A DNA stretch of 64,000 nt from Candidatus Helarchaeota archaeon (GCA_019058315.1 JAHPZH010000001.1:599536-663535), one strand, 5' to 3'; positions 27,969 through 32,248 are shown, counted from the stretch's first letter. Numbers and translations are program-made. Notes: generated from the sequence alone by a model not told the origin.

Positions 27969-28045
27969 TGGCGGATAGGGGAGGATTCGAACCTCCAACC
28001 GCTCGGTTAACAGCCGAGTGCTATACCTGATTAAGCCACCTACCC
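27969..28045 (-). tRNA. tRNA-Asn(GTT), CCA encoded
   Basis: Cloverleaf; CTCGG-CT-GTT-AA-CCGAG; G73. Confidence 0.95.
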
Positions 28046-28052
28046 ATTTTAA

Positions 28053-28127
28053 TGGGATGGAGATCGGGAATTGAACCCGAGTCTATTGAGCCACAATCAA
28101 TTATTCTACCATTAAACTATCTCCACC
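28053..28127 (-). tRNA. tRNA-His(GTG), G-1 and CCA encoded
   Basis: ATTGA-TT-GTG-GC-TCAAT; G-1:C73. Confidence 0.95.
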
Positions 28128-28133
28128 AAAATT

Positions 28134-28243
28134 TGGTGCGGATGGGGAGATTTGAACTCCCGTTTTTAGATTTCAGCAGTTTTTGGCGTTCTAGTCCAAA
28201 TAATTTGGAAGTCTAAATGTCTAAACCTCTAACGTACATCCGC
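28134..28243 (-). tRNA. tRNA-Gly(TCC) with intron carrying an alternative GCC anticodon
   Basis: TTAGA-CT-TCC-A, 34-nt intron (28172-28205), A-TCTAA; GCC cassette at 28185-28187. Confidence 0.9.
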
Positions 28244-28250
28244 AAAAAAA

Positions 28251-28613
28251 TTAGAGAATTAAGGCAGGCACTGTAATAAATTGCACTGGATTTCTCTTGT
28301 TATACTTTCTATGACATTCCCAACACCATGTAATATTGTTTGTTAATGTTTCAACTTTATAAGCTGAACCGTTACACTTTCCAATAATATGGTGTCGTGT
28401 CAAGTAATTGTTTGGGTCTAGTTTATTTTGTTTTACACCGCATTTCTGACAGGTAAATTTATCTCTATTGTAGATAAATAACCGGAGCTTTAGTTGAAAT
28501 CGCCCGCAGTGTGGACATTGAATGTAACCGATAACTTCTTTATTGAATTGTTTGCATTGTTTGTATTCTTTTTTCAGACCTTTTATTGTTTTTTTACAAT
28601 AAATACACTTAAA
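28251..28613 (-). pseudogene. HNH endonuclease frame with N-terminal Zn-ribbon; start codon missing
   Basis: 120 open codons: FKCIYCK...CPHCG...RDKFTCQKCG...LTRHHII...NNITWCWECHRKYN. GAGGTGA SD upstream, but an in-frame TGA precedes the frame. Confidence 0.8.
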
Positions 28614-28641
28614 TCACACATCACCTCTTTTTGTTTGTTGA

Positions 28642-28713
28642 TCCGACTGTGCGGATTTGAACCACAATATCACAGATCTACAGTCTGCTGCCGTACCAGT
28701 TGGCTACAGTCGG
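28642..28713 (-). tRNA. tRNA-Tyr(GTA)
   Basis: C1-G72, A73, short variable loop (archaeal type); GCAGA-CT-GTA-GA-TCTGT. Confidence 0.95.
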
Positions 28714-28793
28714 TATTTTAATAAAGATGGGTAGGGTCTAATTCAAAAAAAATAAAAGGGATTGATGGTAAGTCTAATTATATTAAGATATTT

Positions 28794-28910
28794 TTAATCA
28801 ACTTCCTTAGACATCGGACTTAATACAACCTCTACGACTTTTTCAACAACTTTCATTTCTTCTGCTTCTTTTTCCGTCAAATATGCATAATAACCCATAT
28901 ATTGTTGCAA
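28794..28910 (-). CDS. Putative 38-aa microprotein
   Basis: GGAGGTGA SD, then TTG: MQQYMGYYAYLTEKEAEEMKVVEKVVEVVLSPMSKEVD*. Confidence 0.45.
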   Translation of the reverse strand: MQQYMGYYAYLTEKEAEEMKVVEKVVEVVLSPMSKEVD

Positions 28911-28970
28911 AATTCTTCACCTCCAATTTTTTTTTAAGATAATTTCTAGCTTCAATTGGGTTTTGTAAAG

Positions 28971-29041
28971 TTGCACAGACAGGAATCGAACCTGCTTGCA
29001 ACTCGTTGTAAGCGAGTCAACGATCCAACCGTCCCTGTGCA
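28971..29041 (-). tRNA. Atypical tRNA-Val(TAC)-like gene
   Basis: 7-bp acceptor TGCACAG/CTGTGCA, canonical T arm, loop CT-TAC-AA; but G8, a 5-nt D loop and a 6-bp anticodon stem. Confidence 0.65.
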
Positions 29042-29046
29042 AATGA

Positions 29047-29121
29047 TGGAATCGGTGGGATTTGAACCCACATAAACTTGATCTTCAGTCAAGCGGACTC
29101 GCCGGATTATCCTACGATTCC
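29047..29121 (-). tRNA. tRNA-Phe(GAA)
   Basis: CTTGA-CT-GAA-GA-TCAAG. Confidence 0.95.
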
Positions 29122-29123
29122 AA

Positions 29124-29209
29124 TGGTGGGGTTACTAGGATTTGAACCTAGATCACCAGATTTCTCCACATTTGGAGTCTGGAAGTCTCCCGGATTAACG
29201 TATAACCCC
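29124..29209 (-). tRNA. tRNA-Trp(CCA) with 10-nt intron at 37/38
   Basis: CCAGA-CT-CCA-A-[ATGTGGAGAA]-A-TCTGG; CTCC/GGAG helix. Confidence 0.92.
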
Positions 29210-29211
29210 AT

Positions 29212-29327
29212 TGGTACTCCCGCTCGGGTTCGAACCGAGGTCAATGGGTTTCTCCCATATTCAGATTATGTTTGATCTGAATCAGACCAAAGCCCATCAT
29301 GCTTGGCCAAAGCTACACCACGGGAGT
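29212..29327 (-). tRNA. tRNA-Gln(TTG) with intron carrying an alternative CTG anticodon
   Basis: A1-U72; 37-nt intron 29250-29286; T-CTG-A cassette at 29261-29265. Confidence 0.92.
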
Positions 29328-29331
29328 ATTA

Positions 29332-29482
29332 TGGCGGTAGGGGAGAGATTTGAACTCTCGCTCCCCGTGGGGAAGTAGATTTCTGGTAAAGTGAAATCTC
29401 AACTCGAGGGTAGGCTACTAAGCCGTTCCATTCTCACTGCTTCAATAGCAGTCTACCGTCGTAACCACTTGACTACCCTACC
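29332..29482 (-). tRNA. tRNA-Ser(GCT) with intron carrying CGA, GGA and TGA anticodons
   Basis: Long variable arm, G73; 65-nt intron 29381-29445. Confidence 0.92.
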
Positions 29483-29490
29483 GCTGATTG

Positions 29491-29607
29491 TGGCGGACTT
29501 GGGGAGATTTGAACTCCCAATCTACGGGTTTCTCCACGATTAAGTTCGGGTTACCCCAAAGCTTGAGATAAAAGCCCGTTGCCGTAACCTGGTTTGGCCA
29601 CAAGTCC
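29491..29607 (-). tRNA. tRNA-Lys(TTT) with intron carrying an alternative CTT anticodon
   Basis: 39-nt intron 29530-29568; CTT at 29542-29544 preceded by CCCG-AA. Confidence 0.92.
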
Positions 29608-29611
29608 GCTT

Positions 29612-29824
29612 TGGCGGGATTGCGGGGAATTGAACCCCGACCTTATGATTTCTGTACTACGGTCGCTTTCCTCCTTTTTCAAAGTCTTATTCTAAACCCT
29701 GCCATGGATAAGTCAACTGAACCCCTATTAAGGAAATTTAATCATTTTTGAGGTGAAATTAATAATTATCAAAAAGGGGCCGTAGTTAGACAGTCATAAA
29801 TCATAGCCATTAGACCACAATCCC
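29612..29824 (-). tRNA. tRNA-Asp(GTC) with 138-nt intron
   Basis: Strict BHB (CTGT/ACAG helix, ACTACGG/CCGTAGT outer stem); intron 29650-29787; G73, CCA. Confidence 0.88.
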
Positions 29825-29882
29825 ATTATTCCTCTTCGACTTCAGCCCTAATCTTAAATTAAAAAATGGGGATAATTTGTTA

Positions 29883-29929
29883 GGGGGCAATAATTAGACA
29901 GTCATTAATAACTATTGAACCACAATCCC
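29883..29929 (-). pseudogene. Degenerate copy of the tRNA-Asp 5' half plus intron start
   Basis: GGGATTGTGGTTCAATAGTTATTAATGACTGTCTAATTATTGCCCCC versus GGGATTGTGGTCTAATGGCTATGATTTATGACTGTCTAACTACGGCCCC. Confidence 0.75.
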
Positions 29930-29963
29930 CGTAAGATGTTGTTGGCTGAGTATACAACTATCT

Positions 29964-30028
29964 GGCTTCAGTACGAGAGGAACAATTTCACATTGTTTGT
30001 TTCTGACAAGAGGAACTTCATCATAGCC
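29964..30028 (-). ncRNA. Box C/D guide sRNA complementary to the 23S sarcin-ricin loop
   Basis: GGCT-ATGATGA-AGTTCCTCTTGT-CAGA-...ATGTGA...-GTTCCTCTCGTA-CTGA-AGCC: terminal stem, perfect C and D boxes, both guides antisense to (U)ACGAGAGGAAC. Confidence 0.85.
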
Positions 30029-30158
30029 TTGGGAATTATAGTTTGGATAACGACTTATATCCAAGCCCCTGCTATTTCGTTCTCTCATTTTCATTACCAA
30101 TTGCTACACCTCTTACTTTAATTGATTGTATACAATAGATTGTTTTCATCTGATAAAC

Positions 30159-30195
30159 TAATGATAGTGGCAGTAGGATTTGAACCTACAATCTT
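30159..30195 (-). pseudogene. 3' fragment of initiator tRNA-Met (direct repeat)
   Basis: 37 bp with 1 mismatch to 31002-31038. Confidence 0.9.
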
Positions 30196-30214
30196 ACAGG
30201 CTATTTGCAAAGAA

Positions 30215-30874
30215 TTAGATATTCTCTATTATGTATTTGGTCATTCCTTTTAAGATATATAACTCCTTTGTACTATCAATTCTCAATTTGCATACCCCAT
30301 TATAACTTCTACCGATTCCTCTAGAGCCATGCTTTTTTATGTAAGGTTTTGTAAACTGATTCTTTGGAATATTAAGTATTATTGACCAATAAGAAATCAT
30401 TTTTTCAATTTCATGATAAGAATGTAGATGAAGATGAATCTTAATAGAATTTTTATCGATTTTAAGAACATCTAAAAGAAATCTAAGAAAAATTTCAATT
30501 AATTTTGGGTCGGAATTACTAAATTCTATTCTATGATCACTAGATGTAGTCCCTTCGCTCTGATATAATGTTGTTCCTATTATCATTAGGTCTGACCAAT
30601 TTTCTTTTGCAATTTTCTGCCCTTCCTTATAATATAGTTTTCTTCGTTGTTTTGCTAGTTCCTTCATTTTGTGATGCCCTTTTTCTAGAATAGATTGAGA
30701 TTTCTTCTTCAGTCTATCTTTTTGTTCATTTGTTAAAATTATATCTCTTGTCCAGTTCGCAACTGTTCCCTTCGGTATTCCCATTTGTGAAGATATTTCT
30801 CCAAAAGAATACCCCTTTTTACGCAACCTCCTAGCTTTTCTCTTAATTTTTTCTTTATAACTTCTATACTTCAA
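30215..30874 (-). CDS. HTH plus LAGLIDADG-like (homing-endonuclease-fold) protein
   Basis: N-terminal HTH (LRKKGYSFGEISSQMGIPKGTVANW); GTTLYQSEG followed by IEFSNSDPKLIEIFLRFL. Confidence 0.7.
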   Translation of the reverse strand: MKYRSYKEKIKRKARRLRKKGYSFGEISSQMGIPKGTVANWTRDIILTNEQKDRLKKKSQSILEKGHHKMKELAKQRRKLYYKEGQKIAKENWSDLMIIGTTLYQSEGTTSSDHRIEFSNSDPKLIEIFLRFLLDVLKIDKNSIKIHLHLHSYHEIEKMISYWSIILNIPKNQFTKPYIKKHGSRGIGRSYNGVCKLRIDSTKELYILKGMTKYIIENI

Positions 30875-31007
30875 TGAACATCACTCTTATATCTCCATAG
30901 CCCAATAATGGCAGTTCAATTGTTTTGTTTCATATTCATATATAAACTCAACAAATTCTCCTGACTATCAAGTGAAATTTTCGTAGAGACGGGAAATTCA
31001 ATAATGA

Positions 31008-31101
31008 TAGTGGCAGTAGGATTCGAACCTACAATCTTTGGGTATCTCAATAGATTATTATTTATGAGCCCAACGAGATCTCCTGATTACTCCATGCCAC
31101 T
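31008..31101 (-). tRNA. Initiator tRNA-Met(CAT) with 19-nt intron
   Basis: A1-U72, three G-C pairs closing the anticodon stem; intron 31044-31062 with CTCA/TGAG helix. Confidence 0.92.
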
Positions 31102-31102
31102 A

Positions 31103-31241
31103 TGGTAGAGAGGAGGGGGATCGAACCCCTGCTCTTCAGTTGTCTAAAATTGTTTTGTTACAAAGACAACCATATAAGATTCGTCTTTGTATGACATTAC
31201 ATCATATCAGACTGACGCCTGAACCACTCGGCTACCTCTCT
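31103..31241 (-). tRNA. tRNA-Ile(GAT) with 63-nt intron
   Basis: TCAGT-CT-GAT-A, intron 31142-31204, A-ACTGA. Confidence 0.9.
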
Positions 31242-31243
31242 AT

Positions 31244-31351
31244 TGGTGCTGACCGGGGGAATCGAACCCCCGTCAACGGATGTCTTCATGTAAATTCGAG
31301 ATTGCGTTTCAATCGAAAGTCCGCTATACTTGTCCGCTATACTAGGCCAGC
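31244..31351 (-). tRNA. tRNA-Glu(TTC) with intron carrying an alternative CTC anticodon
   Basis: 32-nt intron 31282-31313; T-CTC-G at 31297-31301. Confidence 0.92.
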
Positions 31352-31355
31352 ACGG

Positions 31356-31492
31356 TGGAGGGCTAGGAGGGATTTGAACCCTCAACATCTCACTATCTCT
31401 GGCTAACTTACGCTACAGATACATTCCGCATAAGGAAGAGCATGTCTTCTGCATACTAGGCGAGCGCTCTAGACCATTGGAGCTACTAACCC
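31356..31492 (-). tRNA. tRNA-Thr: AGT in place, TGT after removing a 33/34 intron
   Basis: U73, CCA; BHB TCGC/GCGG-AA|TGT-A defines introns 31424-31457 and 31395-31419. Confidence 0.8.
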
Positions 31493-31578
31493 TATTTTTC
31501 CAATGCAAATGGTTCTTAAACCATACTATTTTTTAAAACTTCTTTTCATCAACTCCGTTTTTTTTATTTTAAATATGT

Positions 31579-31656
31579 TGGTGGACTCGCCGAGCTTCGA
31601 TCTCGGAGCCTCCTACTTGCAAAACAGGCGTTCTACCATTTTCGAACTACGAGTCC
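31579..31656 (-). tRNA. tRNA-Ala(TGC), atypical (A3-U70, A54)
   Basis: CCTGT-TT-TGC-AA-GTAGG; acceptor GGACTCG/CGAGTCC; T loop ATCGAAG. Confidence 0.85.
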
Positions 31657-31665
31657 ATTTTTCTA

Positions 31666-31738
31666 TGGGCAAGAGAGGATTCGAACCTCTGTGGGTTGGT
31701 CTGCATCCAACTGCATGACCTAATTCTGCCACTTACCC
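31666..31738 (-). tRNA. Atypical second tRNA-Cys(GCA)
   Basis: GTTGG-AT-GCA-GA-CCAAC; A32, A73, no encoded CCA. Confidence 0.7.
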
Positions 31739-31762
31739 ACTATTAAACAAATGTAATTTTGA

Positions 31763-31839
31763 TGGAGGATAAGACAGGATTTGAACCTGTGTGAAATTGG
31801 GTTGCAGCCAATCGCCTACGCCAACTCAGCCACTTATCC
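31763..31839 (-). tRNA. tRNA-Cys(GCA)
   Basis: ATTGG-CT-GCA-AC-CCAAT; U73, CCA. Confidence 0.95.
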
Positions 31840-31843
31840 TTAA

Positions 31844-32020
31844 TGGTGCAGGAGGAGGGATTTGAACCCTCGGTCTCAAGATTTCTTCTAGTATTAGGAT
31901 TCTGTTCGGATTCCGTTATTCGAATACTGTACTATTCGCATTCTGTTATTAGAATTCCAGATCGATGAGGATAACCTCAAAAAATTGTCTTGTAGTTTAT
32001 CCATACTAGCGTACTCCTGC
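31844..32020 (-). tRNA. tRNA-Arg with five tandem anticodon cassettes (TCT, GCG, TCG, CCG, CCT)
   Basis: A20 in D loop; stem CAAGA/TCTTG; on the + strand the insert reads Arg codons AGG 31896, CGG 31907, CGA 31921, CGC 31937 and AGA 31951, each in a tt-NNN-at context. Confidence 0.88.
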
Positions 32021-32021
32021 A

Positions 32022-32100
32022 TGGTGGGATCGGCAAGATTTGAACTTGCGATTGCTTGATCCCAAATCAAGAGTCCTAAACCATACTAGACCACGATCCC
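32022..32100 (-). tRNA. tRNA-Pro(TGG)
   Basis: CTTGA-TT-TGG-GA-TCAAG; CCA. Confidence 0.95.
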
Positions 32101-32110
32101 CAGTATAAAG

Positions 32111-32248
32111 TGGAAGGAAGGGGTTTCGAACCCCTGAACTCCTACGAGATTAGATTTCTCACAGACCTTGAGTGTCGTTCTTAGTATCGTTCTTGACCGA
32201 TAATAAATATCTTAAGTCTAACGCCTTTGACCACTTGGCTATCCTTCC
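32111..32248 (-). tRNA. tRNA-Leu(TAA) with 55-nt intron containing CAA/TAA repeats
   Basis: Long variable arm, A73; intron 32156-32210. Confidence 0.9.

Follow-up and report, generated by a model that had tools for sequence, protein, structure and literature searches.

Can one contiguous tRNA gene supply two tRNAs that differ in their anticodons? To our knowledge, one gene to one anticodon is taken as the rule for tRNAs, and the sole known exceptions are trans-spliced split tRNAs that share halves. The positive function of tRNA introns is itself an old open question. Both matters are raised by a tRNA-Gln gene in a window of 64,000 nucleotides (the whole stretch of DNA that was analysed; G000:C3:599536-663535) from an archaeal genome of 5.8 Mb and 30% G+C, referred to here as G000, which encodes AcnX and UbiD and whose relatives are heavily intron-bearing Asgard-type lineages. 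An earlier note on this DNA had claimed that mutually exclusive hairpins of this gene select between the anticodons TTG and CTG.

Results

A tRNA-Gln gene with two anticodon cassettes

The gene and the parts common to both of its putative splicing routes are as follows.

29212..29327, minus strand: tRNA-Gln gene, 116 nt with the encoded CCA (read by hand, coordinates rechecked)
29292..29327, minus strand: 5′ exon common to both routes, positions 1-32 (coordinate check)
29297-29293, minus strand: 5′ strand of the anticodon stem, ATGGG
29287..29291, minus strand: cassette 1, U33-UUG-G37, with the anticodon TTG at 29290-29288 (CTTTG invariant in three orthologues)
29261..29265, minus strand: cassette 2, U33-CUG-A37, with the anticodon CTG at 29264-29262 (TCTGAA invariant in three orthologues)
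29212..29249, minus strand: 3′ exon common to both routes, comprising A38, CCCAT, the variable loop, the T arm, the acceptor strand and CCA

By hand reading, the acceptor stem is ACTCCCG/CGGGAGT, with the pair A1-U72 and with A73 beyond it; the D stem is GTGT/GCAT with a D loop of 12 nt, the anticodon stem is ATGGG/CCCAT, the variable loop has 4 nt and the T arm reads CTCGG-TTCGAAC-CCGAG. Positions 31 and 39 are separated by 44 nt, and the intron insert of 37 nt has an X-X′-X arrangement. In its unspliced form the gene was reported neither by ARAGORN nor by the Rfam tRNA model at 29210-29330. Spliced of a canonical 37/38 intron, it is a cloverleaf that ARAGORN calls tRNA-Gln(ttg), and both spliced forms described below are called tRNA-Gln by that program, with the anticodon ttg or ctg. 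At the level of the sequence, the UUG and CUG cassettes thus combine with the same two exons, and all of the pieces lie in one contiguous 116-nt gene rather than at separate loci.

The gene contains the 7-mer GCTTTGG twice (29307-29313 and 29287-29293 in plus-strand coordinates): one copy lies in the D loop, which is unusually long (AGCTTTGGCCAA), and the other makes up positions 31-37. The D-loop copy feeds a misfold between the D arm and the anticodon region in the unconstrained minimum-energy structure; it is absent from the orthologues and so is probably incidental.

Two hairpins share one strand

Base-by-base read-out of the insert gives two hairpins.

29272..29290, minus strand: hairpin 1, TTGGTCTG (29290-29283) / ATT / CAGATCAA (29279-29272)
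29259..29282, minus strand: hairpin 2, ATTCAGAT (29282-29275) / CAAACATA / ATCTGAAT (29266-29259)

The segments of the insert run in the order TTGGTCTG, central (ATT)CAGATCAA and third ATCTGAAT. Hairpin 1 has 8 bp, including one G.U pair, and a loop of ATT; hairpin 2 has 8 Watson-Crick base pairs and a loop of 8, and cassette 2 is buried inside it. Because the strand 29279-29275 is common to both, the two hairpins exclude each other. This agrees with the earlier note, according to which the central TCAGAT can pair upstream, burying TTG and exposing ACAT-AA|T-CTG-A, or can pair downstream instead, burying CTG; both pairings are present on the minus strand where the note had placed them. A repeat search did not list the two pairs of 8-nt arms, and it is the base-by-base read-out that supports the pairing. 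Compared with its shuffled counterparts, the anticodon arm has the better fold (z = -3.0, with 1/200 shuffles as good). As in an attenuator, the central strand is complementary to both a 5′ and a 3′ partner, and this is kept in three genomes. The two TCTGA copies that underlie the exclusivity of the hairpins could have originated by duplication.

Each hairpin caps its own splicing motif

The introns of the two routes, and an element that may assist the second, are listed here.

29250..29286, minus strand: route A intron, 37 nt, at 37/38, with the motif BHB-A
29266..29291, minus strand: first route B intron, 26 nt, at 32/33, with the motif BHB-B
29250..29260, minus strand: second route B intron, 11 nt, a bulge-helix-loop that pairs CTCT with GGAG and has the bulges GA|A and AA|A
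29254..29258, minus strand: intron copy of ATGGG; by pairing with the 3′ strand CCCAT (29248-29244) it can leave positions 27-30 free for BHB-B

The canonical archaeal motif has its splice sites in two 3-nt bulges that flank a 4-bp helix, and this helix takes in the first two anticodon bases (PMC4090602). Both tRNA-Gln motifs consist of a 4-bp helix between two 3-nt bulges, with the predicted cut after the second bulge base, which is the rule that the canonical motif implies. The helix of BHB-A joins CTTT (29292-29289; positions 32-35) to GGAG (29255-29252) with two G.U pairs; its bulges are GG|T and AA|A, and beyond them lie a C-G pair, a 2x2 loop and hairpin 2 as the distal helix. Removal of 29286-29250 leaves the loop C-U-UUG-G-A. 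The 3′ half of this motif, GGAGAA|A, is identical to that of the host tRNA-Gln(UUG) gene at C5:591377 and of the Gln genes of relatives.

Five bases upstream of BHB-A, and under the same rule, lies BHB-B. Its helix (H_B) joins ATGG (29297-29294; positions 27-30) to ACAT (29271-29268) through 3/4 pairs, the exception being a G30.A mismatch; its bulges are GC|T (G31-C32|T) and AA|T, and hairpin 1 is an 8-bp distal helix (h′) flush with bulge and helix. Removal of 29291-29266 together with 29260-29250 leaves the loop C-U-CUG-A-A, so that the cuts of both routes yield valid 7-nt loops with U33 and R37. The two introns that had been proposed for the CTG route proved exact, and the form spliced of them is the one that ARAGORN calls as tRNA-Gln with ctg. 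The 11-nt mini-intron shares its form with the 10-nt intron of the tRNA-Trp gene in the tRNA array described below and with the 13-nt intron of the relative L006. The ATGGG copy pairs with CCCAT with a probability of 44-59% in the unconstrained ensemble and is part of the conformer that presents BHB-B (conformer B).

Hairpins 1 and 2 are therefore the distal helices (h′) of two alternative BHB motifs, and act on paper as the selector helices of two competing splicing motifs. In G000 the G30.A mismatch of H_B adjoins the bulge and there is no outer exon-exon helix, which makes BHB-B a relaxed motif of the HBh′ form and implies that a broad-specificity enzyme would be needed. G000 encodes two paralogues of the EndA catalytic domain that score over the PF01974 cut-off (C12:5422-5676 and C1:331438-331698). 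Two-subunit EndA is reported to cut non-canonical introns (PMC5829648) and is common in Asgard archaea (preprint 10.64898/2026.10.13.758758).

Second routes recur across a tRNA array

The gene is a member of a large cluster.

27969..32248, minus strand: co-oriented tRNA array, at least 21 genes in 4.3 kb, six of them with a second, synonymous route

A tRNA array unit has been defined as at least 20 tRNA genes at a density of at least 2 per kb (PMC4758250), and the cluster falls within this definition. We scanned its introns for second routes. To count, a route had to cut after position 31-34, to form at least 3/4 of the pairs of its 4-bp helix, to have a distal helix that is flush and no shorter than 3 bp, and to produce a loop with U33 and R37 while leaving an intron that still pairs with the shared 3′ helix. 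These thresholds were set when the Gln, Glu and Lys cases were already known; the scoring of Ser, Thr, Arg and the controls came later. From the 12 array genes that bear introns the scanner returned six second routes, all six of them synonymous: Gln UUG>CUG, Glu UUC>CUC, Lys UUU>CUU, Ser GCU>CGA, Thr>UGU and Arg>UCU. The array Trp, Met, Ile and Asp genes gave none at the helix threshold of 3 bp, and lowering it to 2 bp gave five non-synonymous routes in the 145-nt Asp intron, which show the background of the scanner. Neither the Arg nor the Thr gene has a valid first loop (ATT and AGT), so introns at 32/33 or 33/34 must be used in the array.

The same scanner found no second route in seven host 37/38 introns, and in eleven Gln introns of relatives it found four chance routes, none of them to Gln. 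Among 20,000 shuffled Gln introns, 32-37% gave any second route of the minimal kind and 0.4-2.7% a synonymous one; a synonymous route with a flush helix of at least 8 bp appeared in 5e-5 of mononucleotide and 1.5e-4 of dinucleotide shuffles. The per-gene rate of any synonymous route was 0.001-0.06 for dinucleotide and 0.0003-0.03 for mononucleotide shuffles.

The scanner leaves aside further cassettes in the Arg, Leu and Ser genes and the Gly gene. The tRNA-Arg gene (31844-32020, minus strand; L162:2720-2885 and L164:2507-2669 in the related arrays described below) has one body, an invalid first loop C-A-ATT and an insert of five tandem AAT/TAT-NNN-AA units that carry TCT, GCG, TCG, CCG and CCT. 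The same set occurs in the same order in the genomes G003 and G006, and the scanner finds a route only to the first unit (TCT). The intron of the tRNA-Leu(TAA) gene (32108-32248, minus strand; L163:91-241; L165, minus strand, 1488-1622) contains the repeated units TCAAG, CTAAG and CTCAAG, which are CAA and TAA cassettes, with no complete second route under the scanner rules. In the array tRNA-Glu gene of G003 (L162:3240-3349), a perfect CCAG/CTGG helix is followed by AG|T-CTC; the next base is C, a non-purine, so the scanner left this route uncounted, and on this comparison of sequences conservation may be weaker for the second route of Glu than for that of Gln. The array also contains two tRNA-Cys(GCA) genes (31663-31738 and 31763-31839, minus strand), of which the downstream one lacks CCA and ends in ..CCCATAG, as well as an ORF of 219 aa (30215-30874, minus strand) with weak N-terminal helix-turn-helix matches (Terminase_5/HTH_23, E about 1e-3; phrog_2308, 5e-5).

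Orthologues keep both motifs

BLAST with the tRNA-Gln gene alone returned no orthologue in 60 relatives, and BLAST with 700 nt of the array returned no homologue at E 1e-8 or lower in 400 genomes of the phylum. Clusters of RF00005 matches, by contrast with these searches, led to homologous arrays in G003 and G006, two genomes that belong to the same order but to another family; these arrays share the multi-cassette Arg and Lys genes and include a Gln orthologue. In both Gln genes the two hairpins, the two BHB motifs, the two cassettes and the 11-nt leftover intron are kept. Pattern scans of genome contigs gave no match. A metagenome scan with the pattern AATCTGR returned ordinary tRNA-Gln genes and chance matches, the pattern also fitting the T loop TTCGAATCTGG, and a design-specific pattern gave 28 chance matches in viral contigs, none in a tRNA. 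Two single candidates were set aside: an exact T-arm and acceptor match in a viral contig, which is a bacterial-type tRNA, and a match in G201, which is not a tRNA.

We aligned the three Gln orthologues (G000, G003 and G006), which are related to each other. Their gene bodies have diverged, with compensatory changes in 5/7 acceptor pairs and 4/5 T-stem pairs, and in the introns CTTTG, TCTG, TCAGAT and TCTGAA are invariant and the leftover intron is 11 nt in 3/3. The route-B structure is paired in 98% of alignment cells. Within H_B, G000 has A-U as pair 27 where G006 has U-A, and U-A as pair 28 where both G003 and G006 have C-G; in G006 this helix is perfect, with 4/4 pairs. Hairpin 1 is paired in 100% of cells, and three changes in it affect one side only, making or removing a G.U pair. 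The route-A structure has 96% of its cells paired, the CTTT/GGAG helix of BHB-A is 100% paired in the three orthologues, and as its outer pair hairpin 2 has A-U in G000 where it has U-A in G006. Given this pairing, the compensatory changes and the invariant cassettes, both folds and both cassettes look selected at the sequence level. This conservation supports the dual-route reading, and three related sequences, being few, are no proof of it.

Predicted balance of the two folds

Of the two-state selection of the anticodon that the earlier note had put forward, the structural part is supported; that both tRNAs mature, with the fold choosing between them, is a prediction. For this gene hairpin 2 takes up about 98-99% of the equilibrium ensemble predicted by ViennaRNA. 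The equilibrium share of hairpin 1 in G000 was 0.2-2% across foldings, and about 0.2% with the cloverleaf enforced. When only the acceptor, D and T arms were enforced, the gap between the hairpins narrowed with temperature (5.0, 2.55 and 0.2 kcal/mol at 20, 37 and 60 C). Explicit conformers that present BHB-A (conformer A) or BHB-B had energies of -30.9 and -29.8 kcal/mol, a difference of 1.1, and findpath placed a barrier of 10-11.5 kcal/mol between them. In most of the nascent lengths tested, from 56 to 86 nt, hairpin 1 was the minimum-energy fold. For the isolated arm, the predicted share of hairpin 1 was 0.5% in G000, 9% in G003 and 30% in G006, and in G006 the minimum-energy fold of the arm is conformer B; the RNAalifold consensus is conformer A.

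The nascent preference for hairpin 1, the small gap between conformers, the barrier and the shares in G003 and G006 make it plausible in these folding models that the outcome is split kinetically, UUG being the major product and CUG the minor one. Long open frames use CAA at 84% and CAG at 16%, which such an output of major UUG and minor CUG would fit.

Host tRNA genes and the surroundings of the array

Host tRNAs carry D-loop and T-loop introns. The host tRNA-Gln(UUG) gene (C5:591377-591500) has a 37/38 intron and a T-loop intron, and the host tRNA-Gln(CUG) gene (C11 near 158400-158585, minus strand) has D-loop and T-loop introns; with host genes for both anticodons, there is no evident need for the array to make a CUG product. 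A host tRNA-Glu(UUC) gene (C5:198977-199113) has a D-loop intron and a 37/38 intron. The Gln(UUG) gene was missed by ARAGORN, the Rfam tRNA model and an acceptor/T-arm scan, and the Glu(UUC) gene was missed by ARAGORN and the Rfam model and listed by the acceptor/T-arm scan; the tRNA inventory that standard tools give for this genome is therefore incomplete.

U33 is near-universal in tRNAs. The host tRNA-Gln(CUG) has C33, in the loop C-C-CTG-R-A, and C33 (loops C-C-CTG-R-A and C-C-TTG-A-A) occurs in both Gln isoacceptors in many genomes of the class (the loci L014, L017, L024, L027 and L037 among others). Several of these C33 Gln genes are intronless, so that C33 is no artefact of splicing.

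The array is flanked by genes for beta-propeller and fn3 giant proteins and by mevalonate-pathway genes; neither an integrase nor a capsid gene, nor any other clear mark of a mobile element, showed in the flanks. With such flanks, and only the weak helix-turn-helix protein inside, a mobile or viral origin of the array is not supported.

Discussion

A predicted route to two tRNAs from one gene

The reading that we favour, with moderate confidence on the strength of the sequence, is that this is a dual-anticodon tRNA-Gln gene whose alternative splicing gives tRNAs with UUG and CUG. The precursor would adopt two exclusive conformers, each presenting one BHB to the splicing endonuclease EndA. In conformer A the anticodon stem would be kept, positions 32-35 would pair with GGAG and hairpin 2 would cap the motif; EndA would remove 37 nt (29286-29250), and ligation at the junction G37|A38 (..CTTTGG|ACCCAT..) would give tRNA-Gln(UUG). 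In conformer B the intron ACAU would pair with positions 27-30, replacing the 3′ strand of the stem, which could be held by the intron copy of AUGGG, and hairpin 1 would cap the motif. EndA would then remove 26 nt (29291-29266), joining C32 to U-CUG-A at the step-1 junction C32|U33, ..ATGGGC|TCTGAATATGGG.. (..GGGC|TCTGAA..), after which the 11-nt mini-intron (29260-29250) would be removed at the shared 3′ site to give tRNA-Gln(CUG), with the final junction A37|A38, ..GGGCTCTGA|ACCCAT.. (..CTCTGA|ACCCAT..). This second step has a constitutive counterpart in the array tRNA-Trp gene, whose 10-nt intron has the same bulge-helix-loop form. The split between products would be set by folding, with hairpin 1 forming first on the nascent RNA, hairpin 2 being the stabler end state and a barrier of ~10 kcal/mol separating the two. 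From the two motifs we infer that EndA would cut both in vivo and that both products would accumulate.

Alternative explanations

Were this an ordinary single-intron gene, only the 37/38 BHB would be cut and only tRNA-Gln(UUG) would mature, and hairpin 1 with ACAT would be a non-productive fold: a folding intermediate, a device for timing or quality control, or what is left of an internal duplication. Our initial reading, in which ATGG/ACAT was judged weak, likewise took hairpin 1 for an incidental minor fold, and was revised on the array-wide test and the orthologues. The canonical form of BHB-A, whose 3′ half GGAGAA|A recurs in host and relatives' Gln introns, the dominance of hairpin 2 in the predicted equilibrium and the existing supply of UUG and CUG from host genes are all as a single intron would have them. 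It leaves unexplained, however, the exact spacing of BHB-B and the covariation of H_B with positions 27-28, and it is hard to square with an invariant U-CUG-A-A and a constant 11-nt leftover intron in three diverged arrays, or with a synonymous anticodon behind a like motif in five other array genes and not in host introns. We consider this explanation unlikely.

Competing motifs would also be unnecessary if the gene were a constitutive two-intron gene that uses route B only, with introns at 32/33 and 37/38, and makes tRNA-Gln(CUG) alone; the apparent UUG loop would then be the 5′ arm of the helix of the first intron. The array Arg and Thr genes, whose invalid first loops call for a 32/33 or 33/34 intron, set a precedent, and within the Gln gene itself BHB-B has the flush 8-bp distal helix, that of BHB-A being interrupted by the 2x2 loop, and GGAG pairs better with CUCU than with CUUU. 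Yet in all three orthologues the first loop is a perfect C-U-UUG-R, its helix to GGAG having 4/4 pairs, and the compensatory outer pair of hairpin 2 would not be needed by route B alone; hairpin 2 is moreover the predicted ground state in G000 and G003. In G006, too, hairpin 1 has changed on its 3′ arm only, to G.U pairs, and the TTG on the other arm is untouched. The CUG-only explanation thus strikes us as improbable.

A silent or decaying array, whose motifs are without present function, is in keeping with the host having tRNA genes of its own and with the lack of a close homologue by BLAST in 400 genomes of the phylum, but its cloverleaves and encoded CCA are intact, its cassettes are invariant, and the many compensatory stem differences among the three orthologues indicate purifying selection on structure; we rate such a pseudo-array as quite improbable. 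That the second motif is a chance resemblance is highly improbable, for although minimal second routes are common in shuffled Gln introns (32-37%) and relatives show four, a synonymous route with an 8-bp flush helix arises in at most 1.5e-4 of shuffles, three genomes have the second route and five other array genes offer a parallel to it. Even taken jointly, a silent array or chance is an improbable account of the locus.

Relation to known systems

Pieces are shared among synonymous isoacceptors by the tRNA-Glu of Nanoarchaeum equitans, which has one 3′ half and two 5′ halves, and by the tri-split tRNAs of Caldivirga maquilingensis (PMC4033280). The dual-anticodon reading of the Gln gene resembles these split and tri-split tRNAs in having one body for two synonymous anticodons and BHB-type motifs that are cut by EndA before ligation. 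Split and tri-split tRNAs are made from separate genes joined in trans, where the choice lies in which transcripts anneal, whereas the Gln gene is a contiguous 116 nt in which the predicted choice is made by exclusive folds, as alternative splicing in cis.

Multi-intron genes of the Thermoproteales, with non-canonical BHB, hBH or HBh′ introns (PMC4090602), and Asgard tRNA genes that are heavily interrupted (10.64898/2026.10.13.758758) likewise combine a non-canonical 32/33 intron with a 37/38 intron, and further points of likeness are the relaxed motif and the two EndA paralogues in the genome. In known multi-intron genes, however, every intron is removed and there is one product; in the Gln gene the competing motifs overlap, with another anticodon of the same amino acid lying between them. 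The Asgard intron census (10.64898/2026.10.13.758758) makes no mention of arrays or cassettes and uses the word 'alternative' only of trees. The Gln genes of the host at C5 and of L002, L004 and L006 differ from the array gene in that their 37/38 introns are of 13-29 nt, with one distal helix and no synonymous second route.

Bacterial L-arrays are reported to be used under translational stress (PMC8421152), and tRNA clusters are reported from archaea (PMC6333295). Like known arrays, the present one is dense and co-oriented and forms a nearly one-per-amino-acid second tRNA set beside the housekeeping set. The titles and abstracts retrieved on these arrays make no reference to multi-anticodon genes; here most genes have introns and six have alternative anticodon cassettes. 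Attenuators and riboswitch platforms share with the Gln intron the X-X′-X arrangement, with a 5′ hairpin that is first to form and a stabler 3′ hairpin, but the output here would be the choice of a tRNA splice site rather than transcription termination or translation initiation. Full-text literature searches turned up no account of a tRNA alternatively spliced in cis, nor of multi-anticodon genes.

Implications

Array genes were missed by standard tRNA finders, so inventories of Asgard tRNAs undercount both genes and anticodons. If the dual-anticodon reading is true, this would be the first alternative splicing of a tRNA, from a cis gene cut in two ways; it would give tRNA introns a positive function, the storage of a second anticodon, and would add a new layer for tuning the tRNA pool to codon use. 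More tentatively, and with doubts of our own, we suggest that the array as a whole might be a compact translation kit, in which isoacceptors are held as anticodon cassettes and an RNA switch sets their ratio after transcription; for Gln this switch would be the choice of hairpin 1 or hairpin 2, which might be tunable by transcription speed or temperature. Such a kit, if real, would mean regulated alternative splicing of tRNAs in the archaeal lineage closest to eukaryotes.
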